From: Trinickia sp.
GTDB taxonomy: Bacteria > Pseudomonadota > Gammaproteobacteria > Burkholderiales > Burkholderiaceae
Assembly (NCBI RefSeq): GCF_036503415.1
Contig: NZ_DASXWY010000180.1
Coordinates: forward strand, 5,065 to 69,064
Reading direction: 5' to 3'
Length of the DNA stretch: 64,000 bases
In this document: positions 2 to 12,657 of the stretch, piece after piece
How the letters are laid out: the number at the start of each line of letters is the position of its first letter
Numbering within the stretch: position 1 is the first letter of the stretch
Notes under the pieces: generated by a model
Told to the model about the DNA's origin: nothing
Database searches by the model: none
Seen by the model: only the letters and a program-made list of their open reading frames with translations
Made by a program: the position numbers and the translations under genes

Positions 2-877
2 CAATCGCAGAGCGAGGGCTTGCGCTCGCCGCTCGACACGCTCGCTTATCAACATGCGCTGCTCGATATCATGCGCCAGCTCGAAGCCGTGCGCGATCAG
101 CTCGAGGAAGCCAAGCCGCGGCTCGCCTCGTTGATGAACATTGCGCCCGGCACTGATTTCACGCTCGCGCCGCCGGCGGATTTCACGGTGCCTAGCTTCG
201 AGATGCCGATGGACCGCATGGAAGAGACGGCGCTCGAGCGCCGGCCAGAACTCGTCGAAGCCGGCTACAACGAGCGCATCAGCATCAACGAGACGCATAA
301 GGCAATCGCCAAACTGTTGCCCGGCATCGAGGTGCAGTTGGGCGGCCATTACGACAGCAACAGCTTGCTCGCCTATCACGCATGGCGTGCGGCCGGTATC
401 AATGTGAGCTGGAATCTGCTGAATCTGCTCAACGCGAAGAACATCCGCGGCATGGCCCGTGCCCAGCGCGACGTCGCGCATGCGCAGCGGCTCGCGCTGT
501 CGATGGCCGTGCTCACGCAAGTTCACGTCGCGAACGCCGAGCTCGGCGCCAAGCAGCGACAGTTCGATTTGTACAAGCAGCTCAACGACGTGGATGGCCA
601 GATCCTGCAGCACACGCACAACGCGACGGTGGCGAATGCGCAAGGCAAGCTCGAGGAGATTCGCGCGGCCACTTCGGCCATGATCTCGGAGCTGCGCCTC
701 TATCAAAGCTACGGCGAGCTCGAAAGCGCCTATGGCCAACTGCTTGCGACGCTCGGACTCGACCCGGTTCCGGCCGACACGCGCAATGGCGATCTGAAAT
801 CGATCGAGCAATCGCTCGACAAGGAGCAAGCGCGATGGGCCGAGTTCGGCCACGCGAACGGAGTTACGGCGCAATGA
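2..877 (+). CDS. TolC-family outer membrane efflux protein (5' truncated by window edge)
   Basis: Frame open from base 2. Outer-membrane-factor repeats (ALERRPELVEA; AQRLALSMAVLTQVHVA; ELRLYQSYGELESAYGQLLATLG). Stop overlaps the next ATG (ATGA at 874-877). Confidence 0.85.
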   Translation, partial: QSQSEGLRSPLDTLAYQHALLDIMRQLEAVRDQLEEAKPRLASLMNIAPGTDFTLAPPADFTVPSFEMPMDRMEETALERRPELVEAGYNERISINETHKAIAKLLPGIEVQLGGHYDSNSLLAYHAWRAAGINVSWNLLNLLNAKNIRGMARAQRDVAHAQRLALSMAVLTQVHVANAELGAKQRQFDLYKQLNDVDGQILQHTHNATVANAQGKLEEIRAATSAMISELRLYQSYGELESAYGQLLATLGLDPVPADTRNGDLKSIEQSLDKEQARWAEFGHANGVTAQ

Positions 878-1683
878 AGCGATGGGGCAGGGCAGGGCTT
901 GGCGGTGCGGTATTGATGATGGCGGTTCAGGGTGGTTGGGCTGCAGGGGTGCAATCGGGGACCCCGGCCCCGGCGGCGTCGGGATCCTCGGGTGTGCCCG
1001 TCGCGCATGCCGAGGACGACGGACGCATCCGTATTCAGCTCGTTGCGCGCGACGAGGTCGAAGTGTCGAGCGAAATCAGCGCGAAGATCGCCTCGATGCC
1101 GTTTCGCGATGGCGATGCGTTCCGCGTGGGCCAGACGCTCGTGTCGCTCGATTGCTCGCTGTACGCGGCTCAACTGCACAAGGCGCAAGCCGAGTCCGAC
1201 GCCGCCGTGGAGTTGAAGCGCGTCAACGATCGGCTGTCGCAGCTCCATTCGATCGGCCAGATCGACGTCGAGCAAGCCGCGGCAAAGGCGAAAGCGAGCG
1301 CGGCCGAGGTGGCCTACATGCAGGCGACGGTGCGCAAGTGCGCCATTGCGGCGCCGTTCGACGGGCGCGTCGTCAAGCGCAGCGCTTCGGCGCAGCAGTT
1401 TGCGCAGCCCGGCAAAGCACTGATGACGATCGTCGACACGAGCCACCTGGAGCTCAAGATGATCGTCCCGTCGAAATGGCTCGCCTGGCTCAAGCCGGGC
1501 CATCCGCTGACGGTCAAGGTCGATGAGGTCGGCAAGGTGTATCCGGCCACGGTCGCTCGCATCGGCGCGCGCGTCGATCCCGTCACGCAGACCATCGATG
1601 TGACGGCCGCATTGTCCGGGCACGCATCCGAGCTCCTGCCCGGTATGAGCGGGTGGGCGAGCTTCGCCGGCGCGAGCCGCTAG
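874..1683 (+). CDS. Periplasmic adaptor / membrane fusion protein (HlyD/RND type)
   Basis: Signal-like N-terminus; lipoyl halves (EISAKIASMPFRDGDAFRVGQTLVSLDC; CAIAAPFDGRVV); beta-barrel with RIGARVDPVTQT. Start placed at the ATGA overlap, not the track start at 382. Confidence 0.85.
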   Translation: MKRWGRAGLGGAVLMMAVQGGWAAGVQSGTPAPAASGSSGVPVAHAEDDGRIRIQLVARDEVEVSSEISAKIASMPFRDGDAFRVGQTLVSLDCSLYAAQLHKAQAESDAAVELKRVNDRLSQLHSIGQIDVEQAAAKAKASAAEVAYMQATVRKCAIAAPFDGRVVKRSASAQQFAQPGKALMTIVDTSHLELKMIVPSKWLAWLKPGHPLTVKVDEVGKVYPATVARIGARVDPVTQTIDVTAALSGHASELLPGMSGWASFAGASR

Positions 1684-1688
1684 CCGTC

Positions 1689-3113
1689 ATGAACGCCCCC
1701 TTGCGGATCCAGGCGGACGCGCTCGCGCTGCTATGGCAGTTGTCAGCACGCGCCCGGCAAGCACCGAGCGAGGAGACGCTCGGCTTCGTCATCGTCAATG
1801 AGTCCCTTTCGCTCGTCCCTTATCGTCAAGCGGCGTGGTGGCGGGCGCCGGCGCCGCTTCCGGGTGCGGTCGCAGCGGTCTCGGGGCTGCCGCAGAGCGA
1901 TCCCGGCGCACCCTATGTGCAATGGCTCGGCCAAGTGTGTCGCGAGCTTGAAAAACGTCATTCGACGCAAGCGGACGCGTCATCGGCATCGCAGCAGGCG
2001 GACGCGCGCGAGGGGGCGGGTGCCGGCGATCAGCCGGCCCTCGATTGGCCCTATGCCTTTGTTGCGGACAGCCTGCCGGAGCCGCTCGCTGCCGAATGGG
2101 ACGCCTGGTGGCCGGCACATGCTCTATGGGTGCCGCTTTTCGATCGCACCGGCCGCTCGCTCGGCGGTGTCCTCTTTGCGCGCGACGAGCCGTGGACGCA
2201 GCTCGACGAAGCGCTGCTAGCCGAGCTCGCGCGCGTTTGGTCGCACGCCCTCGCGGCATTTTCGCCACGCGCTTCCTGGCTGCAGCGCACGAAACTCGCC
2301 CTGCGCGCCGGCAAACATCGACGCCGGCTGTTTGCAGCCGTCGCCGTTGCGCTCGTCATACCCGTGCCGCTGACGGTGCTCGCGCCGGCCGAAGTCACGC
2401 CGAAGGATCCGTTCGTCGTGCGCGCGCCGCTCGACGGCGTCATCGACAAGCTCTTCGCGCAGCCGAATCAGCGCGTCGAGGCGGGCGCGCCGCTCTTCGC
2501 ACTCGACTCGACGACACTCGCTTCGCGCTATGCGCTTGCAAACAAAAACTACGCCACAGCGCAGGAGGAATACCGGCAGACCGCGCAACTGGCCGTCACC
2601 GACGATAAAGACCGGCTCGACATGGCGTTGCGCAAAGGCAAACTCGATCAGAGCGCGGTCGAACTCGACTATACGGCGCGCGAGCTCGCGCGCGTGCGCG
2701 TGAATGCGCCACGCGGCGGCGTCGCGGTGTTCTCCGATCCGAACGATTGGAACGGCAAGGCGGTATCGATCGGGGAGAAGGTGATGCTGCTCGCCGATCC
2801 GGTCCATGTTGAGTTGACCGCCTATGTGCCCGTTGCCGACAACGTCGATGTCGTACCTGGCGCGACCGTCACGCTTTATCCGAAGAGCTCGCCGCTCGCG
2901 TCCTACGATGCCCGCATCGATACGGTGGCGTATCGCGCCGAGCCGACACCCGACGGCGTGGTCGCCTACCGTGTGAAGGCAACGTTCGTCGATGCTGCCA
3001 AGCCGCCGCTCGGCACGATGGGTACCGCGCGCATTCATGGTCGATGGGTGCCGCTCGCCTACTATCTGCTGCGCCGCCCGCTCGCATCGGCCCGGCAGTG
3101 GTTCGGCTGGTAG
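1689..3113 (+). CDS. GAF-like domain + TM + HlyD-family adaptor protein
   Basis: N-terminal GAF-like region (ALWVPLFDRTGRSLGGVLFARDEPW), one TM (LFAAVAVALVIPVPL), adaptor motifs VVRAPLDGVIDKLFAQPNQRVEAGAPLF and VNAPRGGVAV. Confidence 0.8.
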   Translation: MNAPLRIQADALALLWQLSARARQAPSEETLGFVIVNESLSLVPYRQAAWWRAPAPLPGAVAAVSGLPQSDPGAPYVQWLGQVCRELEKRHSTQADASSASQQADAREGAGAGDQPALDWPYAFVADSLPEPLAAEWDAWWPAHALWVPLFDRTGRSLGGVLFARDEPWTQLDEALLAELARVWSHALAAFSPRASWLQRTKLALRAGKHRRRLFAAVAVALVIPVPLTVLAPAEVTPKDPFVVRAPLDGVIDKLFAQPNQRVEAGAPLFALDSTTLASRYALANKNYATAQEEYRQTAQLAVTDDKDRLDMALRKGKLDQSAVELDYTARELARVRVNAPRGGVAVFSDPNDWNGKAVSIGEKVMLLADPVHVELTAYVPVADNVDVVPGATVTLYPKSSPLASYDARIDTVAYRAEPTPDGVVAYRVKATFVDAAKPPLGTMGTARIHGRWVPLAYYLLRRPLASARQWFGW

Positions 3114-3153
3114 GTCGGTCCATGACCACGCCTTGTGAAATGACGTAGCTTCG

Positions 3154-5265
3154 ATGCCCCGCCTTCCATCCCTTCGCCAAGAACTGAGTCTCACGCCCGG
3201 CGCCGCGACGCCGGACGGCGCCCCGACGTGGATGCTCCACGATCCGGCGGCGAATCGTTTCTTCCAGATCGGGTGGCCCGCGTTCGAGATGCTCTCGCGC
3301 TGGCCGCTCGACGATGCAAGGGCGATCGTCGCTTCGGTCAACGCCGAGACGACGTTGAACCTGACGATGGAGGACTTCGAGTCGCTCGTACGGACGCTGC
3401 TTCATCAGAATCTGCTCGTCGCGACGAGCGCGGCCGACACGGGACGGCTCGCGAGCGCAGCCGCGGCGGGCAAGCTGTCGCACGCCATGTGGCTGCTCAA
3501 GCATTATTTGATGGTTCGCGTGCCACTGTGGCGGCCGATGCCTTTTCTGCGGCGCTTCGCGCGTTACGCCGAACTCGCCTACCGCCCCGCGTTCTGGATC
3601 GGCGTCGCGGTTGCGGCGCTGATCGGGCTCGTGCTCGTGTCGCGACGCTGGGACGAATTCGTCCACACCTTCCACGGCTACGCCGATCTACGCGGGCTTG
3701 CCGCGATCGCTCTCGCACTGGGCTGTGCCAAGGTGCTGCACGAGTTCGGCCATGCGTTCACGGCGCATCGCTACGGTTGCCGCGTGCCGACGATGGGCGT
3801 CGCGCTGCTCGTCATGGTGCCAGTGCTCTATACCGATACCACCGAAGCCTGGAAGGTGCCGGGGCGCGCCGAACGCTTGCGCATTGGTGCTGCCGGGATG
3901 GTGACCGAGCTTGCATTGGCCGCATTCGCCACGCTGGCCTGGAGCCTGTTGCCCGATGGCCCGTTGCGCGCGGGCGCATTCCTGCTCGCAACGACGACCT
4001 GGATCGGCACGTTGACGATCAACGCGAGCCCGTTCATGCGCTTCGACGGCTATTTTCTGCTGTCCGATTGGCTCGACATGCCGAATCTGCACGATCGCGC
4101 GTTTGCGTTCGGCCGCTGGTGGATGCGCGAGCAGCTGTTCGGTTTTGGCGATCCCCAGCCCGAGCCGTGCGCAGCACGCCGCAGACGCTTTTTGATCGCG
4201 TTCTCGTTCGCGACCTGGCTCTATCGGCTCGTCGTCTTCTTTTCGATTGCACTCATCGTCTATCACGCTTTTTTCAAGGCGCTGGGCTTGATCCTGTTTT
4301 GCGTCGAATTCGGCTGGTTCATCGCACGGCCGATCGTGCGCGAAGTCATCGCCTGCTGGCATCGCCGTTCGGCGCTGCGTTGGTGCCGGCAGACCCGGCG
4401 TAGCGCGGCCCTCGGCGCGATCCTGTTTGCGCTTGTCGTGCTGCCCTGGCACGGCGGTGTGGGCGCGCCGGCCGTGCTGGGGCCGCAGCGCGCGCAAGGC
4501 CTCTACGCTCCCGAGGCGGCTTACGCGAGCGGCGAGGCACCGATCGCCCGCGACGGTCAGCGCGTACATGCGGGTGACGTACTTGCCGTGCTGAGCTCGC
4601 CCGATCTGACGCATCGACTGCAAGCAGCACGAGCCGACGAAGCGTTGTTGCGCTGGCAGGTCGAGCAGCAGTCGTTCGATACGCGGCTACTCGAACAGGG
4701 TGTCGCGCTGCGGCGGCGCTGGGACGCTGCCCGCGAAACGGTGGCGGGGCTCTCGGCGCAAGTCGCGCAACTCACGCTGCGTGCGCCGTTCGAAGGTGTC
4801 GTGCAAACCGATGACGCGCTCGCGCCCGGTACCTGGCTGCCGCGCGGCGAGCATCTGTTCGACGTCGTCGGGCCGATGGGGGTGAAGGGCGAGGCGTTCG
4901 TCGGTGAAGACGATGCGGCGCGCATCGCGTCCGGCGAGCCGGTGACATTCGTTGCGTCGCTGCCCGAACGGGGTGCGCTGCACTGCCGCGTAACGGCCGT
5001 CGATCGCGTCAATCTTGCCGCGCTCGATGTGCCCTCGCTGGCAAGCGTGTACGGTGGGCCGCTGCCTGTGCAGTCGCAGCCGGGCACGCATCAGCTCGTG
5101 CCGCTCGCGGCCACCTATCGCGTACGGATCGGCGCGTGCCCCGGGAACGAGGCGTGGCCGCGCGAGATCGTCGGCACCGCGACGATCGGCGCGGCGCGTC
5201 AAAGTTTTGCGTGGCGAGCGTTGAAGTGGCTTGCGGCCGTATTTGTGCGCGAGGGTGGCGCTTGA
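3154..5265 (+). CDS. Site-2 (M50) membrane zinc metalloprotease fused to a HlyD-type adaptor, with an N-terminal PqqD/RRE-like domain
   Basis: HEFGH zinc motif; NASPFMRFDGY third-ligand motif; multiple TMs; C-terminal hairpin/lipoyl region (LRAPFEGVV); N-terminal WMLHDPAANRFFQIGWPAFEML resembles PqqD-like domains. Confidence 0.8.
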   Translation: MPRLPSLRQELSLTPGAATPDGAPTWMLHDPAANRFFQIGWPAFEMLSRWPLDDARAIVASVNAETTLNLTMEDFESLVRTLLHQNLLVATSAADTGRLASAAAAGKLSHAMWLLKHYLMVRVPLWRPMPFLRRFARYAELAYRPAFWIGVAVAALIGLVLVSRRWDEFVHTFHGYADLRGLAAIALALGCAKVLHEFGHAFTAHRYGCRVPTMGVALLVMVPVLYTDTTEAWKVPGRAERLRIGAAGMVTELALAAFATLAWSLLPDGPLRAGAFLLATTTWIGTLTINASPFMRFDGYFLLSDWLDMPNLHDRAFAFGRWWMREQLFGFGDPQPEPCAARRRRFLIAFSFATWLYRLVVFFSIALIVYHAFFKALGLILFCVEFGWFIARPIVREVIACWHRRSALRWCRQTRRSAALGAILFALVVLPWHGGVGAPAVLGPQRAQGLYAPEAAYASGEAPIARDGQRVHAGDVLAVLSSPDLTHRLQAARADEALLRWQVEQQSFDTRLLEQGVALRRRWDAARETVAGLSAQVAQLTLRAPFEGVVQTDDALAPGTWLPRGEHLFDVVGPMGVKGEAFVGEDDAARIASGEPVTFVASLPERGALHCRVTAVDRVNLAALDVPSLASVYGGPLPVQSQPGTHQLVPLAATYRVRIGACPGNEAWPREIVGTATIGAARQSFAWRALKWLAAVFVREGGA

Positions 5266-5325: not shown

Positions 5326-5703
5326 TTACTTCACCGAAAACGTATACCGCCCCTGTGTGCGATGCCCGTCCGCGGCAACGGCGACCCACACCACGGTGTA
5401 CTTGCCGGGCGCGAGTGTGCCGACCGAAACCGACATGTGCTTCGGGTTCGCCGCATCGACAGCCGACTTGCCGCTGACGACGGACTTGCCTTGTGCATTG
5501 GTCACATCGATCGAACTGAACGCCGGTTCGAGACGGTCGTCGAAATCGATGGCAACTTTGTTGATCGTCGCCGGGATAGTGGCGCCGGCGGCGGGCTCCT
5601 GACGAGTCGGCCTGGCGTGAGCGAACGCGAGCGAGGCGGCGGCAAGCGTCAGTGCGGCGGCGGCAATGTGCGCCGCGGAAACGATCGATAGATGCTTCTT
5701 CAT
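5326..5703 (-). CDS. copC: Periplasmic copper-binding protein CopC
   Basis: Signal peptide followed by N-terminal His (AFA-HARP); C-terminal YTVVWVAVAADGHRTQGRYTFSV motif. Confidence 0.9.
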   Translation of the reverse strand: MKKHLSIVSAAHIAAAALTLAAASLAFAHARPTRQEPAAGATIPATINKVAIDFDDRLEPAFSSIDVTNAQGKSVVSGKSAVDAANPKHMSVSVGTLAPGKYTVVWVAVAADGHRTQGRYTFSVK

Positions 5704-5950
5704 ATCCTCAGTGACCTTTCAATGCAGTGCAAAGCGGGCGCGTGACTAGGGCTCCGATCGTAGCCGATCGGCCGTAGTGTCGCAAACGAGGCATGCCACA
5801 CCAACGGGGGCACGCGAAAATGCATGTGATAGCCTACACATCGTTCTCCTGCCATATCGGACGTCGCTCGCGTTGCTCACGTTGCTCGCGTCGCGCACAT
5901 TGCGCACGCTGGCCGTTGCCGTTGCGATGAAAAGACAAAAAGAGGAACAC

Positions 5951-8815
5951 ATGCGCTGGATCTTTGGGGTGGTGGGCCTGGTGATCGGCTCGGCGATGGC
6001 GCGGCTTCTCGGTGCCTCCGATGTGAGCGGGGCGATAGTGGGAGCGCTGGCCGGCTTCATGTTCGGCGTGTGGCTCCGCCGGGCATCGCCGGCTCAAACA
6101 ACCGCTGACGCGGGCGCGGAAAAGGCTTTCGACGGTTCGACGACGCTCGCTGCGCGCGTCGAGCAGCTCGAACGCCAGGTCGCCGCATTGACGCAGGAAC
6201 TCGCGCGGCTGCATTCGCCCGAGGCGCAACCCCCTCAGGTGTCTCCCATCGCGCAGCCGCTCCCCGGCGACGCTGTCGCCGCGCAGACGACAGTAGCGCC
6301 TGTCGGGCCCTCCGATTCCGGCACGCCGCCGGCCTCCCGTGACGACGCAAGCGAAGTTCAGCCCGGAACCGCGGCGATGTCCGTGCCCATGCCCGGCGAG
6401 CGCAACGAGCAGACCGTTCCGACCGCACCGATCGCACCGATCGCACCGACGATCTTCGAGCGTGCGGTGCGAGCGGCGCGCGATTGGCTCGTCGGCGGTA
6501 ACACGGTAGTGCGGGTGGGCATCATCGTCCTCTTTTTCGGCGTGGCGTTCCTGCTCAAATATGCGGCCGACAACGCGATGCTGCCAGTTGAGTTCCGCCT
6601 CGCGGGTGTCGCGCTCGGCGCCGTCGTGCTGCTCGTACTGGGCTGGCGTATCGGCCCGCGGCGCGGTGCTTATGGCCTCGTACTGCAAGGCGGCGGTATC
6701 GGTGTGCTGTACCTGACGGTGTTTGCGGCGACCAAGCTGTACGGGCTGCTGCCCGCCAGTGCGGCGTTCCCATTGATGGTCGTCATTTGTGCCCTGGGTG
6801 TGTTTCTGGCGGTACGCCAGGACGCGCCCGCGCTTGCGTTTCTCGCGAGTGCGGGCGGCTTCCTGGCGCCGGTGCTGATTTCGACAGGTGGCGGCAGTCA
6901 CGTCGTTCTGTTCAGTTATTACGCACTGCTCGATGCCGGCATCTTCGCCATCGCCTGGTTCAAGGCCTGGCGTCCACTCAATTTACTCGGCTTTACGTTC
7001 ACTTTCGCCATCGGCACAGCCTGGGGAGTGACGTCGTACCGGCCTGAATTGCTCGCGAGCACCGAGCCGTTTCTGATCCTCTTCTTTCTGATGTACGTCG
7101 GCATCGCACTGCTTTATGCGATGCGCCGCGAACTCGCGATCCAGCATTACGTCGACGGCACGCTCGTATTCGGCACCCCCATCGTCGCGCTCGGTTTGCA
7201 GGCTGCGCTGATGAGGCACATTCCATTCGGCCTTGCCTGGAGCGCGGTGGCACTGGGCGCTTTCTACCTGAGCGTAGCCGCGTGGCTCGCGCGTCGGCGC
7301 GAGCGATTGGCGTTGCTGTTTCAGTCCGCGGCGGCCATTGGCGTCGTCTTCGCGACGCTCGCTATTCCACTCGCGTTCAGCGGACCGACGACGAGCGCGG
7401 CCTGGGCGGTCGAAGGCGCCGCCGTCACCTGGCTCGGCGTGCGTCAACGGCGCTACTTGCCGCTTGCTTTCGGGCTCCTCATGCAGCTCGCGGCAGCCGG
7501 CGCATTTTTCGTGAGTCAGCTTTTCGCGAGCGCACCCGCTACGCCGGTGCTGAACGGCGCCTATCTGGCGACATTGCTGATTGCAGCGGGCGGCGTTTTC
7601 ACCGGTTGGCAACTGCATGGGCGCGACGAAGGGCGCGCGTGGCGTCCGTGGACCGGGCAACTGGGCCTCGCGGCGGCGATCTGGGGGCTTCTCTGGTGGA
7701 TCGGCGGCGGAGCGGACGAGATCGCGGCCTACGCGCAAATGCATGCCGTCGGGGCGCCACAGCGTTTCGCTATCGATGCCTCGATACTCTTTGCCGTGCT
7801 GACAGCCTGGTTCGCGCATGCGCTTCGCCACGCGCTTGCATGGCCTGCGGCGCGATGGCCCGCACTGGCGCTCGCGCCGGTACTGGCGTGGCTTTCGCTC
7901 GCCGCGCTGGGCTTGAACGAGGCGCCGCTCACGGGTCTCGGGGCAATTGCGTGGCCGGCCGCATTCGTGTTCGGATATCTGCTGCTATGGCGCGAGCAAA
8001 GCGATGCGCCTGGCCGGACTGCGGATGCGCTGCATACGGTGATGTTCTGGGTGCTCTGCTGTGTGCTCGCCCAGCAAGCGTATTGGCGTTTGCGCACGTA
8101 CGTGCCCGAGGGTGCCTGGAGTTGGAGCGCGTGGGCATACGGCGTCGGCATGGCGGTTTTACTCGTGTCGACCGTCGGGACACGCTTGCGTTGGCCCATC
8201 GGGCGATTCGCGCGTGCCTATCAGCTGTGGGCGGCCGGGCCGCTTGCCGCACTGCTCTGGGTATGGACCCTCGCCAGTTTGCAAAGCGATGGCAGCGCGG
8301 CGCCGTTGCTGTGGCTGCCGCTACTCAATCCACTCGATGTCGCGCAGATGCTCGTGTTCGTTGCGATGGCGGCATGGCTGCGGCGCGCGTCGACATTCGG
8401 TTTTGCGTTACCGTCCCGCGTGTTCGCTTACGCGACACTGGCCACGGGATTTCTCTGGCTCAACGCGTTGCTGTTGCGCGCGCTTCATCATTGGATCGGT
8501 CTGCCGTACAGCCTCGGCGAAATGGCGCGCTCCACGTTGGCGCAAGCCTGCGTCTCGATCCTCTGGGCGGTGAGCGCGCTTGCCATGACCATCTGGGCCA
8601 CGCACAAGGGCGCACGCGCGGTCTGGTTCGTAGCGGCCGGCCTGCTCGCCTTGACCGTCTTGAAGCTGTTCGTGTTCGACTTGTCGCACATTCAGGGGCT
8701 CGAGCGCATCGTGTCGTTCATCGGGATCGGCGTGATGCTGCTGTTGATCGGCTACTTTTCGCCGCTGCCGCCGAAAGTTTCGGAGCACGAAACAACGGGA
8801 GGGAACCTCACCTGA
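5951..8815 (+). CDS. Large polytopic membrane protein, DUF2339 family
   Basis: WLVGGNTVVRVGIIVLFFGVAFLLKYA and C-terminal KLFVFDLSHIQGLERIVSFIGIGVMLLLIGYFSP signatures; AGAGGA RBS before ATG 5951. Confidence 0.85.
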   Translation: MRWIFGVVGLVIGSAMARLLGASDVSGAIVGALAGFMFGVWLRRASPAQTTADAGAEKAFDGSTTLAARVEQLERQVAALTQELARLHSPEAQPPQVSPIAQPLPGDAVAAQTTVAPVGPSDSGTPPASRDDASEVQPGTAAMSVPMPGERNEQTVPTAPIAPIAPTIFERAVRAARDWLVGGNTVVRVGIIVLFFGVAFLLKYAADNAMLPVEFRLAGVALGAVVLLVLGWRIGPRRGAYGLVLQGGGIGVLYLTVFAATKLYGLLPASAAFPLMVVICALGVFLAVRQDAPALAFLASAGGFLAPVLISTGGGSHVVLFSYYALLDAGIFAIAWFKAWRPLNLLGFTFTFAIGTAWGVTSYRPELLASTEPFLILFFLMYVGIALLYAMRRELAIQHYVDGTLVFGTPIVALGLQAALMRHIPFGLAWSAVALGAFYLSVAAWLARRRERLALLFQSAAAIGVVFATLAIPLAFSGPTTSAAWAVEGAAVTWLGVRQRRYLPLAFGLLMQLAAAGAFFVSQLFASAPATPVLNGAYLATLLIAAGGVFTGWQLHGRDEGRAWRPWTGQLGLAAAIWGLLWWIGGGADEIAAYAQMHAVGAPQRFAIDASILFAVLTAWFAHALRHALAWPAARWPALALAPVLAWLSLAALGLNEAPLTGLGAIAWPAAFVFGYLLLWREQSDAPGRTADALHTVMFWVLCCVLAQQAYWRLRTYVPEGAWSWSAWAYGVGMAVLLVSTVGTRLRWPIGRFARAYQLWAAGPLAALLWVWTLASLQSDGSAAPLLWLPLLNPLDVAQMLVFVAMAAWLRRASTFGFALPSRVFAYATLATGFLWLNALLLRALHHWIGLPYSLGEMARSTLAQACVSILWAVSALAMTIWATHKGARAVWFVAAGLLALTVLKLFVFDLSHIQGLERIVSFIGIGVMLLLIGYFSPLPPKVSEHETTGGNLT

Positions 8816-10164
8816 AGCGTTTCGTTGCAGGCTGCGGCGCGGCGGTTCTCGCGGCGTTCGCCATTGGGCTGCCGGTTGCGGCGCAAGCTGCGCCAACGCC
8901 GTTCATGCATCGCTTTGCGCTCGAACTGGACGGCAGCGCGCCGTACTACGTGCTTGCCGTGCCACCGGCCGTTTATGCCGCGAGCCGTCGATCCGATCTC
9001 GGAGACGTGCGTGTGCTCAATGGCGCAGGCGAGCCCGTGCCTTATTCGCTCGATGCGCCCGTGGCCCATCAGGCGCCGACGCTGCGTCCGGTCAACTGGT
9101 TTCCGTTGCCGACCGCCGCTGCGAATGCGCCCGCCGCAACGGCCGGCGTGTCCATCGCACAGGATGGGACACTGCGCCTCACGACGGCCGCACCGAACGC
9201 GGGCGCGCGCGATGCGGACCTGCTCGATATCGGTTCTGCCGCGCAGCACGTGGGCGCGCTTGTCATCCATGTGCGGGAGGACAGCTACCAAGGACGCGTG
9301 CATGTCGATGCCAGCGCCGATCTGCAAAGCTGGCGTGCGGTGGCCGATGCCTCGATCCTCGAGGCCAATCACAACGGCGAGCGTCTTGCGCAGGAACGCA
9401 TCGCGCTCGATAACCTCGGGCAGACAGAGCGCTATTTGCGGCTTCGGTGGCTTGGCGGCGGCCCGGAGATTGCATCGGTCGACGTCGAGCTTTATCCCGA
9501 TGAAGCCCGCCCATCCGATGGCGCCCGCCAATGGCGCGAGGGCCTCGTCGCCCGTGCGGGCAAAGCTGCGGGCGAATACCTGTTCGAAACGGGCGGCGCC
9601 TACCCGGTCGACCGCCTCAGAATCGATGTGCCGCAACTGAATACGGTGGCGCAAGCCACCGTCTACTCGCGCCCGAACGGCGATGTGCCGTGGCGCGAGA
9701 TTGCGCACGCGCTGCTTTTTCGCGTCGCGCAACACGGCGAGGCGCGCAATCCGCCTTTGGAATTCGCGCCGGATACGGATGGTCAATGGCGAATCGTCGT
9801 CGACATGCGCAACGGCGGACTGGGCAACGGCATGCCGAGCGCCGCAGTGGGCTGGCAACCGGCACGGCTCACGTTCGTCGCTCGCGGCGCCGGACCGTTC
9901 TCGCTTGGCGTCGGCAATGCGCGCGTTGCCGGGGCCGCCGAGCCGCGCGACGACATCCTCGTGGGGGGCGAGGGCGGGGCGGGTGTCAAGCCGGCACATC
10001 TGGGCGCGCCGCTGCCGGTCGACGAGGATGAAGCGCGGCGAGCCGCCGGCAATGCGGACTCAGGGCGCCGATACGTGCTCTGGGGCGCGTTGCTATTGGC
10101 CGTCGCCGTGCTCGCCGCGATGGCTTGGCGCCTCTTGCGGCCGCAAGATACGGCGCGGTCGTGA
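8812..10164 (+). CDS. DUF3999-family exported protein with C-terminal TM; probable CTG start
   Basis: SRRSDLGDVRVLNGAGEPVPY and WQPARLTFVARGAGPFSLGVG motifs, C-terminal TM. The signal peptide lies upstream of the first in-frame ATG (8905). GGGAGGG at 8797-8803 precedes in-frame CTG at 8812, which overlaps the upstream TGA. Confidence 0.75.
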   Translation: MKRFVAGCGAAVLAAFAIGLPVAAQAAPTPFMHRFALELDGSAPYYVLAVPPAVYAASRRSDLGDVRVLNGAGEPVPYSLDAPVAHQAPTLRPVNWFPLPTAAANAPAATAGVSIAQDGTLRLTTAAPNAGARDADLLDIGSAAQHVGALVIHVREDSYQGRVHVDASADLQSWRAVADASILEANHNGERLAQERIALDNLGQTERYLRLRWLGGGPEIASVDVELYPDEARPSDGARQWREGLVARAGKAAGEYLFETGGAYPVDRLRIDVPQLNTVAQATVYSRPNGDVPWREIAHALLFRVAQHGEARNPPLEFAPDTDGQWRIVVDMRNGGLGNGMPSAAVGWQPARLTFVARGAGPFSLGVGNARVAGAAEPRDDILVGGEGGAGVKPAHLGAPLPVDEDEARRAAGNADSGRRYVLWGALLLAVAVLAAMAWRLLRPQDTARS

Positions 10165-10367
10165 CGCTCGCCCGTGGCGACGATCGGCACGCCTGACGTT
10201 TCGTAGTGCCAACGCGAGAGCTTTCTTTCAGTGTGCTTACGTGCTATAGATGCGCGTGTTCCGGGTCTTGCAAGACTCTCAGCGTGCTTTTCCGCGACGA
10301 CTATTTGACTCGCTCGCCGGTTAGGGCGAAGCTACGCACCAGCATTTCTTCCGCCCATCGGATATTC

Positions 10368-10874
10368 ATGAGTTCATCGCTGACAGTTCGCCGTATTGCT
10401 GCCGACCAGGGCCCAACACTGCGCGAATTGCGCACCGCTGCATTACGCGAAGCGCCCTACGCGTTCGGGCAGACGCTGGAGGAGGCGCTCCACGAACAGA
10501 CGGAAACGTTCGAAGCGATCGCCGCCCGCCATGCCGGATCCGACATCTCCACGTCTTTCATTCTCTACACGGAAGGTTACCCGGCGGGGCTGATCGGCGC
10601 TTACTTCGACGACGGGCACAAGGCGTTCGTCTGCGCGCTATGGGTCGCGCCGGCCGTGCGCCATTTGCGCGGTGGAGAGCTGCTGGTCAATACGGCGAGC
10701 GAATGGCTCGCCGAGCGCGGCGCCGACGAAATCCACGCGTGGGTGACCGACATCAACCGCAACGCGATGCGGTTCTACGAGCGCCTCGGCTTCGGGCCGA
10801 CGGGCGACCACGCACGCATGCCACGTCAACCGGAAGCGTGGGAAACGCTGCTGGTGCGGCACGTCAAGCGCTGA
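10368..10874 (+). CDS. GNAT-family N-acetyltransferase
   Basis: ALWVAPAVRHLRGGELL acetyl-CoA motif A; NRNAMRFYERLGF motif B. Confidence 0.85.
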   Translation: MSSSLTVRRIAADQGPTLRELRTAALREAPYAFGQTLEEALHEQTETFEAIAARHAGSDISTSFILYTEGYPAGLIGAYFDDGHKAFVCALWVAPAVRHLRGGELLVNTASEWLAERGADEIHAWVTDINRNAMRFYERLGFGPTGDHARMPRQPEAWETLLVRHVKR

Positions 10875-11044: not shown

Positions 11045-11782
11045 ATGTCGCTGAATAAATCGCCATTCTTCGAACTACGCAGCGGCTCGGTCGATACGCT
11101 CTTGTTCGTCGTCAAGACGACCGACCTCGGTGCGCTGAAGAGCGAGCTCACGCGGCGCTTCGAGGCGACTCCCGAATTCTTCGCGGGCGATGTCGTCGCC
11201 ATCGATGTACGGCGCCTTGCCGATGACGAGCGCGTGCCGGTCGACGAGCTGACGGCACTGCTGGGCGAAGTCAGAATGCGCGCGCTCGGCGTCGTTGCCG
11301 CGCCACATCAGACCGAGTGGGCCGCTCGCGGCGGGCTGCCTTTGCTCGAAGCGCGCGACAGGCGCGCAGCGCCTCAGAAGGGCGAGCACGCAAGCGCCGC
11401 CGCGCCGCAGCCCGCGGACGTCGTTGCGCCGGTGCCGCAGGTCGCTGCGTCGGCGCTCGTCATCGATAAACCGCTGCGCTCGGGGCAGCAAATCTATGCG
11501 AAGGGCGACCTCATCGTGCTCGGGCTCGTGAGCTACGGCGCGGAAGTGATCGCCGAAGGCAACATCCATATTTACGCGCCGCTACGCGGGCGCGCACTCG
11601 CCGGCGTCCACGGCAATCACGACGCGCGGATTTTCTGCACGTGTCTCGAACCGGAACTGATTTCGATCGCAGGCATCTATCGGACGTCGGAAAACCCGTT
11701 GCCGGCCGAATTATTGGGCAAGTCGGTGCAAATCCGGCTTGCCGACGAACGACTGATCATCGAGCCGCTGCGGCTCACGTGA
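11045..11782 (+). CDS. minC: Septum site-determining protein MinC
   Basis: [45 protein letters not shown] beta-helix; operon with minD and minE. Confidence 0.97.
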
Positions 11783-11844
11783 GATGCGCGATACGCATCG
11801 CGCAAGCCTCATCGACTCAATTGACGAACACAGGGTAAGGGGAA

Positions 11845-12657
11845 ATGGCAAAAATCGTTGTGGTGACTTCGGGCAAGGGCGGCGTGGGCAAGACCACGAC
11901 GAGCGCGAGCTTCGCGTCGGGCCTCGCACTGAGGGGCTTCAAGACGGCCGTGATCGACTTCGACGTCGGGCTGCGCAATCTCGACCTCATCATGGGCTGC
12001 GAGCGCCGCGTCGTGTACGACTTCATCAACGTGATCCAGGGCGAGTCGAACCTCAACCAGGCGCTCATCAAGGACAAGAAGTGCGACAACCTCTTCGTCC
12101 TGCCTGCGTCGCAAACGCGCGACAAGGATGCGCTCACGCTCGAAGGTGTGGAGAAGGTCATCAACGATCTGAGCGGCATGGGCTTCGACTACATCGTCTG
12201 CGACTCTCCGGCCGGTATCGAATCGGGTGCGTTGCTCGCCATGCATTTTGCCGATGAGGCGCTGGTCGTGACGAATCCCGAAGTGTCGTCGGTGCGCGAT
12301 TCCGACCGCATTCTCGGCATCCTTTCCTCGAAGACGAAGCGCGCCATCGAGGGCAAGGAGCCGATCAAGGAACATCTGCTCATCACGCGCTACAACCCGA
12401 AGCGTGTGAGCGAAGGAGAAATGCTTTCGCTGTCCGATATCCAGGAGATCCTGCGTATCGAACTGATCGGCGTGGTGCCCGAATCGGAGGCGGTGCTGCA
12501 CGCCTCGAACCAGGGCTTGCCGGCCGTGCATATGGACGGCACCGACGTGGCCGAGTCGTACAAGGATATCGTTGCGCGCTTTCTGGGCGAGGACAAGGCG
12601 TTGCGCTTTACCGATTATCAGAAGCCGGGGCTTTTGCAGCGCCTCTTCGGCAAGTAA
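11845..12657 (+). CDS. minD: Septum site-determining ATPase MinD
   Basis: GKGGVGKTT deviant Walker A; DFDVGLRNLDLIMGCERRVVYD; C-terminal amphipathic GLLQRLFGK. Confidence 0.98.
   Translation: MAKIVVVTSGKGGVGKTTTSASFASGLALRGFKTAVIDFDVGLRNLDLIMGCERRVVYDFINVIQGESNLNQALIKDKKCDNLFVLPASQTRDKDALTLEGVEKVINDLSGMGFDYIVCDSPAGIESGALLAMHFADEALVVTNPEVSSVRDSDRILGILSSKTKRAIEGKEPIKEHLLITRYNPKRVSEGEMLSLSDIQEILRIELIGVVPESEAVLHASNQGLPAVHMDGTDVAESYKDIVARFLGEDKALRFTDYQKPGLLQRLFGK

Follow-up and report, generated by a model that had tools for sequence, protein, structure and literature searches.

A TolC, adaptor and M50 protease module without a linked pump, adjacent to giant LEPR-leader proteins

TolC systems normally need an ATPase pump, and the giant adhesins of Gram-negative bacteria have so far been thought to be exported by type I systems driven by ATP-binding cassette (ABC) transporters or by type V pathways. 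A stretch of 64,000 nucleotides from Trinickia sp. (contig NZ_DASXWY010000180.1, positions 5,065–69,064 of the forward strand; the whole stretch is hereafter the window) opens with four genes that raise the question of what a TolC duct might carry, and how, when no such pump is encoded beside it. The four encode the 3′ part of a TolC-family protein, a plain periplasmic adaptor, an adaptor with a GAF-like domain, and a fusion of a domain resembling the recognition element (RRE) of ribosomally synthesised and post-translationally modified peptide (RiPP) pathways, an M50 intramembrane protease domain and a third adaptor. That these genes and an adjacent giant gene form one functional unit is well supported. 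We read the four genes as encoding the envelope apparatus that exports or displays a giant protein with an LEPR-type leader, by a dedicated pathway that depends on TolC and not on an ABC protein (probability roughly 0.6); the broader claim, that they are a dedicated export or display apparatus for the adjacent giant protein, we consider very probable.

A four-gene module without a linked pump

The module comprises four open reading frames (ORFs) on the forward strand, given here with the parts of their products (AF2, AlphaFold2; pLDDT, predicted local distance difference test score; TM, transmembrane; S2P, site-2 protease).

2–877, + strand: TolC-family outer-membrane factor, 3′ part (291 codons; Pfam OEP E 2.7e-10); the gene starts upstream of the window
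874–1683, + strand: MFP1, short periplasmic adaptor, 269 aa (HlyD_3 E 1.6e-21; NCBIfam RND_mfp 119.9 bits, cut-off 94.9)
1689–3113, + strand: GAF-like domain, one TM helix and periplasmic adaptor, 474 aa (HlyD_3 E 2.2e-14; AF2; Foldseek)
1689–2273, + strand: predicted cytoplasmic GAF-fold domain, residues 1–195 (AF2 pLDDT ~90; Foldseek)
2328–2384, + strand: single TM helix, residues 214–232 (hydropathy 2.56; KHRRR just before)
3154–5265, + strand: RRE/PqqD-like domain, M50 (S2P-type) membrane domain and periplasmic adaptor, 703 aa (Pfam M50, HlyD_3)
3154–3423, + strand: predicted cytoplasmic β3-α3 (winged-helix, RRE/PqqD-like) domain, residues ~1–90 (AF2; hhalign)
3739–3753, + strand: HEFGH zinc-binding/catalytic motif (H196, E197, H200), residues 196–200, invariant in 70 homologues
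4021–4050, + strand: NASPFMRFDG, second S2P signature with the third zinc ligand, residues 290–299 (N290...P293...D298-G299)
4450–5262, + strand: periplasmic adaptor part, residues 433–703 (α-hairpin 483–538, nt 4600–4767; lipoyl-like domain; β-barrel)

Reading of the ORFs together with Pfam and NCBIfam bore out the gene set and motifs of an initial annotation of this sequence, as well as the close spacing it described: the TolC stop codon (TGA, 875–877) overlaps the ATG (874–876) of the 269-aa adaptor as ATGA, 5 bp separate that adaptor from the 474-aa protein and 40 bp separate the 474-aa from the 703-aa protein. On public contigs identical to the window (L001–L006; loci and contigs are given throughout by L numbers) the full TolC protein has 518 aa and two OEP repeats (E 2.5e-27). 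MFP1 begins with a signal-peptide-like segment (nt 874–945) that has no lipobox cysteine, and all three proteins downstream of TolC are matched by Pfam HlyD_3/HlyD_D23.

An ABC gene was defined as an ORF with both a Walker A and an LSGGQ motif, and no such ORF occurs anywhere in the 64-kb window, in agreement with the initial annotation, which had seen no ABC ATPase in view. Across the 92 loci surveyed, ABC-like ORFs were found in six only, at scattered positions and mostly as small stand-alone ATPase ORFs, and all-versus-all clustering of flanking ORFs returned no recurring pump of the resistance–nodulation–division (RND) type; neither kind of gene is thus a consistent member of the operon. 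For the copies on mobile elements described below, namely the Escherichia coli cassettes bounded by insertion sequences (IS) and plasmid pMSR-1, neither the annotation nor our search showed an ABC gene in the surrounding stretches that were read. A module without an ABC, RND or major facilitator superfamily (MFS) engine is therefore well supported.

Conserved linkage to a giant gene

The architecture of the 703-aa protein is widespread. A word-indexed search gave 3550 matches among the candidates that it scored, and an exhaustive profile search with a threshold of E ≤1e-30 gave 5244 cluster representatives, of which the best 150 match the profile end to end, 149 of them being ~700 aa long and one a 1147-aa apparent fusion. 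The four genes are spread over at least 397 species of alpha-, beta-, gamma- and deltaproteobacteria and Nitrospira, with carriers that include Burkholderiaceae, Azospirillum, Chromobacterium, Nitrospira and plasmids of E. coli and Citrobacter. Fragments of the genes are also present in root and rhizosphere metatranscriptome contigs, a presence that is silent on operon structure.

Synteny was surveyed with phmmer, the four window proteins serving as queries and every stop-to-stop ORF of the 92 loci as a target. Where contigs are long enough, most loci keep the order TolC, MFP, GAF/adaptor, M50/adaptor, and the GAF-adaptor is conserved beside the M50 fusion in loci with upstream sequence. On public contigs that encode an identical 703-aa protein, a giant repeat protein gene lies directly upstream of TolC, as the initial annotation had anticipated in naming an upstream adhesin as a possible cargo. 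A giant ORF is adjacent to the module wherever the contig allows, in four gene orders:

Upstream of TolC: window type and others (adjacency survey)
Between the short adaptor and the GAF-adaptor: L063, L067, L069, L072, L079
Downstream of the M50 fusion: Nitrospira loci L053, L085, L073
Divergent: L048

Adjacency that is kept through rearranged gene orders is strong evidence of functional coupling. Beyond the giant gene, which we call the cargo gene, and the four module genes, the clustering of flanking ORFs found nothing conserved across the 92 loci. The unit recurs in unrelated surroundings: on an annotated plasmid of Burkholderia anthina a giant DUF4347 protein (3302 aa), TolC, two adaptors and the M50 fusion follow one another between unrelated genes, and an Azospirillum brasilense plasmid has the same arrangement. 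The 35.8-kb Magnetospirillum plasmid pMSR-1 carries the module with a cargo of 492 aa. IncFIA/FIB plasmids of E. coli carry a 4459-aa Ig-like protein with TolC and three adaptors, bounded by ISKpn26 and IS1 (five-gene cassette at L009 18491–38242, plasmid NZ_CP081785.1), and this cassette is present at ≥99% identity in 24 of 5426 complete genomes, in 21 places on plasmids and 4 on chromosomes. Cassettes of the E. coli type were also seen on Citrobacter plasmids. We refer to clusters of the window's kind, including these 92 loci, as type A, and to sister clusters with a SecA paralogue as type B.

The giant cargo and its terminal motifs

At least 1268 residues of the window's own cargo are visible before the contigs break in repeats, and the protein ends ...GKPSLDQQFAQARAALHVSHPGGATRRI. 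Neither this fragment nor the 3302-aa B. anthina cargo gave a HemolysinCabind match, and RTX repeats were not detected in them. At their C-termini the cargoes share an Ig domain of the He_PIG type, followed by a linker of low complexity, by the motif G-[KR]-x-[SAG]-[LF]-x-x-Q-[LFVI], whose start lies 38 residues (median) before the end of the protein, and by a tail of ~30 residues. A strict form of the motif (G-[KR]-x-[SAG]-[LF]-x-x-Q-[LF]) was found within the last 80 residues of 41 of the 3467 ORFs of at least 150 aa, all 41 being cargo, and 49 times in total in 1.8 M residues.

At the other end, the leader of every full-length giant cargo is a run of basic residues and then [LM]-E-[PQSA]-R-x-[LMFV]-[FY]-D-[GA], a motif of the LEPR-XLL type. 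A regular expression of our own for LEPR-like motifs matched 16 of 1411 ORFs of at least 300 aa, again exclusively cargo (16/16), with 18 occurrences anywhere; the NCBIfam LEPR-XLL model (NF012209, cut-off 17) gave 31 bits for type-B cargo and 16.9 and 16.2 bits for type-A leaders. Both terminal motifs are essentially exclusive to cargo. A Nitrospira cargo (L085 12232–16731) has an LEPR-type leader (LESRIMFDG) and lacks the strict C-terminal motif, so the latter is not universal even within type A. The 492-aa cargo of pMSR-1 (L012 14511–15989) consists of ELWxxDGT repeats, a He_PIG domain and the C-terminal motif.

Of the 10 full-length type-A cargoes, 7 have DUF4347 after the LEPR leader; it was seen in L007 6162–16070 (residues 139–302) and at the N-termini of the cargoes in L009, L010, L011, L032, L039 and L069. 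Its conserved 'SHG' and 'YGC' form a His/Cys pattern reminiscent of clan-CD peptidases, and any role in self-processing or as a plug is pure speculation; PDB searches with DUF4347, and with DUF3467 (see below), returned no meaningful match, and a SecB-like nature of DUF3467 would be conjecture. A DUF4347 protein of Burkholderia thailandensis, whose gene neighbourhood could not be checked, is listed as induced in stationary phase in a proteomics table (PMC12322963).

Sister clusters encoding a SecA paralogue

Weak tblastn matches on alphaproteobacterial plasmids led to the type-B clusters, which occur in Rhizobiales and Rhodobacterales. Those of Methylosinus, Pseudohalocynthiibacter and Mesorhizobium were read directly, and on Rhizobium and Alisedimentitalea plasmids the tblastn coordinates put the SecA paralogue near the M50 gene. 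In these clusters a giant LEPR-XLL protein (Methylosinus, 8847 aa; Mesorhizobium, 10,518 aa) is followed by DUF3467, the GAF-adaptor, a PqqD-M50-adaptor, a SecA-like protein of 638–668 aa, a short adaptor and, in Methylosinus, TolC. The SecA-like protein is a truncated SecA with SecA_DEAD (E 1e-103), the preprotein cross-linking domain (PPXD) and the SecA P-loop domain, in the order nucleotide-binding domain 1 (NBD1)-PPXD-NBD2; the NCBIfam SecA model matches it at E 7e-179, below the cut-off, over roughly the first 525 of 814 positions. These paralogues are ~50% identical to one another, are currently annotated 'prepilin peptidase', 'hypothetical protein' or 'DEAD/DEAH box helicase', and adjoin the M50 fusion or lie within a few hundred bases of it on Rhizobium, Mesorhizobium and Rhodobacterales plasmids. 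Coordinates in the alphaproteobacterial plasmid clusters are:

L094, 9604–11520: SecA paralogue
L093, 10051–12057: SecA paralogue
L096, 11764–13725: SecA paralogue

No SecA paralogue was found in the 92 type-A loci, the window or the type-A plasmids, those of E. coli included. DUF3467 was likewise not found in the window or the type-A loci, except for one ORF in the Nitrospiraceae locus L053 (5544–5972, − strand), which lies just upstream of TolC on the opposite strand. In encoding a shortened SecA paralogue dedicated to specific cargo, type-B clusters resemble accessory SecA2 systems; they differ in belonging to Gram-negative alphaproteobacteria and in their coupling to adaptors, to an M50 fusion and, in clusters where it was seen, to TolC, and the window's subtype lacks such a paralogue.

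Architecture of the GAF- and M50-containing adaptors

The 703-aa protein was modelled with AF2 from a 70-sequence alignment (pLDDT 84; predicted template-modelling score 0.62). Its N-terminal domain is predicted to fold as three strands followed by three helices (E12–15, E26–30, E35–39, H41–48, H55–65, H72–84; pLDDT 70–91), and this β-β-β-α-α-α order is the RRE/PqqD topology. Ten of its residues are invariant (R8, G22, P24, W26, D30, P31, N34, W41, E45 and W50). An hhalign alignment of the window family profile with the Methylosinus PqqD-M50-adaptor runs from end to end (probability 100%, E 3.6e-52, 677 columns), and the homologous domains of Methylosinus and Pseudohalocynthiibacter pass the Pfam PqqD model PF05402 (28.7 and 27.3 bits, cut-off 23.4).

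In the membrane part, HEFGH and NASPFMRFDG are invariant in the 70 homologues, down to 35% identity, the invariant positions of the second motif being N290, S292, P293, F294, R296, F297, D298 and G299. AF2 places the HExxH helix at residues 179–206, a β-hairpin at 214–227, a helix at 270–290 and further helices up to ~429. A PDB profile search with the M50 core had S2Ps as its sole matches, MjS2P (3b4r, E 0.002) and RseP (7w6x, E 0.012), with which the module protein shares HExxH, NxxPxxxxDG and, in the AF2 model, a membrane-embedded β-hairpin after the HExxH helix; unlike them it has no PDZ domain or anti-sigma context and carries additional C-terminal TM helices and the adaptor fusion. Strong constraint on the RRE-like domain and on the S2P catalytic residues is well supported, and conservation of this kind would fit what is expected of a working receptor and peptidase.

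When the full-length M50 fusion was used as the Foldseek query, adaptor structures alone were returned, with MexA, ZneB, MacA and EmrA as the top matches to the adaptor part (E ~1e-10). In the 474-aa protein, modelled with a pLDDT of 67 overall and ~90 for residues 1–195, the N-terminal domain resembles GAF domains 6ob8, 6oap and 8w26 (Foldseek E 7e-5 to 2e-4, ~210 columns) and the C-terminal half resembles CusB, MacA and EmrA. The KHRRR stretch before the TM helix of the 474-aa protein indicates an N-in, C-out orientation, and basic residues there and before the last TM helix of the 703-aa protein place the GAF and RRE-like domains in the cytoplasm and the adaptor parts in the periplasm; that these periplasmic parts are genuine TolC-type adaptors is well supported. 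The type-B homologue of the GAF-adaptor is matched by Pfam GAF (PF01590, E 5e-13), and the GAF-adaptor families of the window type and type B align (hhalign probability 97%). Together with the PqqD matches, these type-B alignments confirm both domain calls by homology.

One protein (P0430, 1147 aa) appears to join a GAF-adaptor part, 32% identical to the product of 1689–3113, and the RRE-M50-adaptor in a single chain. It was not used as evidence, because no TM segment lies between the periplasmic adaptor and the cytoplasmic RRE domain and a lost stop codon or gene-calling artefact is suspected; if real, it would argue for a physical complex.

A possible export mechanism

In the pathway that we favour, the three adaptors would build a mixed ring that docks TolC, and the GAF domain may gate the process on a cytoplasmic ligand. 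The RRE domain would bind a terminal motif of the cargo as a β-strand and deliver it to the M50 active site, on the cytoplasmic side of the membrane, for cutting, by analogy with RRE-dependent M50 leader peptidases. That the RRE-M50 part binds and cleaves the cargo is somewhat favoured over the contrary. As its ligand the N-terminal LEPR leader is our candidate of choice, since it is the sole signal common to both cluster types, which share the RRE-M50 unit; since RRE-guided M50 peptidases of RiPP pathways, such as those for daptides and epipeptides, take N-terminal leaders as substrates; and since a SecA-type motor with a preprotein-binding domain threads from N to C. The choice of this leader rather than the C-terminal motif is nevertheless tentative, with the odds leaning against it. 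The C-terminal module of type-A cargo would enter last, and may serve as a stopper or anchor, a release site or a late secretion signal.

The presence of a SecA paralogue and DUF3467 in type-B clusters leads us to guess that a SecA-type ATPase drives the threading of the polypeptide. In type A, housekeeping SecA would be the most economical guess, and one we regard as doubtful; extracellular folding and the proton-motive force are further candidates. Folding of the Ig- or cadherin-like repeats outside the cell could act as a ratchet through TolC, a principle established for RTX proteins in type I secretion systems (T1SS).

Several points weigh against this pathway. The cluster encodes no energy source, and we know of no S2P protein that conducts proteins. 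The GAF and RRE/PqqD labels of the initial annotation, upheld by AF2, Foldseek and homology, are not recovered by Pfam, in which the window's 474-aa and 703-aa proteins have no GAF or PqqD (PF05402) match even at E ≤10. A PDB profile search with the RRE-like domain gave chance-level matches only (for example BLF1), and what upholds both assignments in the window is structure prediction together with remote homology. In Pfam, M50 only just passes (PF02163 on residues 185–267, 28.5 bits against a cut-off of 27.2). The LEPR leader is only weakly hydrophobic, without a normal hydrophobic core, and thus gives no clear sign of using SecYEG; the available contigs end in repeats and do not reach the N-terminus of the window's own cargo; and the position of the C-terminal motif resembles a T1SS-style signal for which a model based on an N-terminal leader does not account. 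The 492-aa pMSR-1 cargo has no LEPR leader, and either is a degenerate remnant or indicates that the C-terminal module alone suffices. The 10-kb flanks surveyed fall short of the region upstream of most giant genes, and secretion, cleavage and complex formation are steps that we infer.

Comparison with known systems and alternative explanations

The same genes could instead retain and release a cargo that reaches the periplasm by Sec export, the adaptors and TolC holding it until a GAF-regulated M50 domain cuts a terminal tether, as an analogue of LapD/LapG acting on LapA. S2P proteases do cut membrane-proximal segments, the cytoplasmic GAF domain suggests ligand control, the conserved terminal modules of the cargo could be tethers, and the type-B SecA paralogue fits a Sec-dependent crossing of the inner membrane. 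The leader, however, lacks a normal hydrophobic core, a TolC duct with three adaptors is elaborate for mere retention, and there is no sign of a periplasmic intermediate. We consider this explanation, which partly overlaps the favoured one, improbable.

A classical T1SS whose ABC component is encoded elsewhere would take the C-terminal motif and tail as its signal, draw ATP-driven export from an unlinked HlyB-like protein and use the M50 domain to trim or release the adhesin. The likeness to the giant-adhesin T1SS of Pseudomonas (LapA/LapBCE) and Salmonella (SiiE/SiiCDF) is considerable: a TolC-family duct and adaptors stand beside a giant repeat adhesin, which is a hallmark of T1SS; the cargo pairs a conserved C-terminal element, ~38 residues from its end, with a folded N-terminal domain and is likely to be displayed at the surface; and the E. 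coli cargo has VCBS and weak T1SS-143-repeat similarity. Against this, 86 of the 92 loci have no linked ABC gene, the remainder having mostly small stand-alone ATPase ORFs at varying positions, and the IS-bounded E. coli cassettes and pMSR-1 move without one in the stretches read. RTX repeats were undetected in the cargo (window fragment and B. anthina), which carries an N-terminal LEPR-type leader instead; the module has three distinct adaptors where a T1SS has one, two of them fused to the cytoplasmic GAF and RRE-M50 parts, which is not a T1SS feature; and the sister clusters recruit SecA, not an ABC protein. A hidden T1SS is thus quite improbable, and the 'Type I-like' label of the initial annotation probably needs revising, given a cargo in which RTX repeats were not detected, a common signal that is the N-terminal LEPR leader and sister clusters that use SecA.

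The initial annotation had also allowed for a peptide cargo, in which case the RRE-M50 part would remove the leader of a small precursor that leaves by way of the adaptors and TolC, with the giant gene as a mere neighbour. RRE domains are typical of RiPP pathways, and the best curated relatives of the protease, which share its HExxH intramembrane type, are RiPP leader peptidases: the daptide intramembrane metalloprotease MpaP (NF041824) is the nearest NCBIfam family at E 3e-45, and YydH/LiaK (NF058609) matches the M50 part weakly. The inferred presentation of a terminal leader to a membrane protease by a recognition element would be a further likeness. Both scores are nevertheless under their cut-offs (155 bits against 300, and 18 against 225), the module protease is fused to an adaptor, and its substrate would be thousands of residues long. 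The clustering of flanking ORFs across the 92 loci found no linked modifying enzyme, precursor or conserved small ORF family, and the giant gene stays adjacent through four gene orders, with motifs exclusive to cargo, so that a peptide cargo is very hard to credit.

Least probable of all is a module for small-molecule or metal efflux or for envelope-stress signalling, unrelated to protein export: the adaptors do score best against RND/CusB-type models, share the adaptor fold with its α-hairpin (Foldseek E ~1e-10) and a TolC partner with tripartite pumps (AcrAB-TolC, MacAB-TolC, EmrAB-TolC), and have a CopC gene just downstream in the window, but an S2P-type domain fused to an adaptor replaces the energised RND, ABC or MFS transporter of those pumps, none of these transporters is linked, each lineage has different genes downstream and no sigma/anti-sigma pair lies nearby.

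Neighbouring genes

Downstream of the module the window carries the following genes, labelled by Pfam from identical contigs.

5326–5703, − strand: CopC
~5950–8815, + strand: DUF2339 membrane protein
~8905–10164, + strand: DUF3999
Within 10206–10874: GNAT gene, ~5 kb from the module
11045–12657, + strand, then minE: minCDE

None of these is conserved beside the module in other lineages. GNAT and phage-tail-collar ('tail fiber protein') genes were seen beside it in 7–8 loci, in Chromobacterium, Paludibacterium, Phytobacter, Azospirillum and Burkholderia, at these positions:

L007, 5454–6068
L010, 1–1791 and 2199–2768
L072, 664–1689
L025, L027, L032, L039 and L040, ~12.1–14.0 kb
L034, 7.7–9.4 kb

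Implications

Giant adhesins are key to biofilm formation and to root and host colonisation, and the module described here, which spans at least 397 species and several thousand protein clusters, pairs giant proteins with a TolC duct and no ABC pump. In the literature covered, with subscription-only papers lying outside it, we found no account of M50-adaptor fusions or of LEPR-XLL function, nor of DUF3467 in this setting or of TolC-linked SecA paralogues in proteobacteria; apparent matches were dismissed, as they were numbered residues of MacB, DOIs of references, papers on classical T1SS or giant proteins unrelated to these. The module may represent an unrecognised class of diderm secretion system, with a TolC conduit and an inner unit of RRE-gated S2P-adaptor and GAF-adaptor, that serves LEPR-leader giants and is powered by a SecA-family protein or by no cytoplasmic ATPase; we rate this as a little short of an even chance. 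If the cargo is exported, the annotation of the module genes as 'efflux RND transporter periplasmic adaptor subunit' would be corrected, and functions would follow for the LEPR-XLL leader, as a secretion signal, for DUF3467 and for the proteobacterial SecA paralogue. Export would also mean a new mode of energising and gating TolC-dependent protein export, and would make available a compact five-gene cassette, functional-looking in E. coli, for genetic dissection and for the display of very large proteins.

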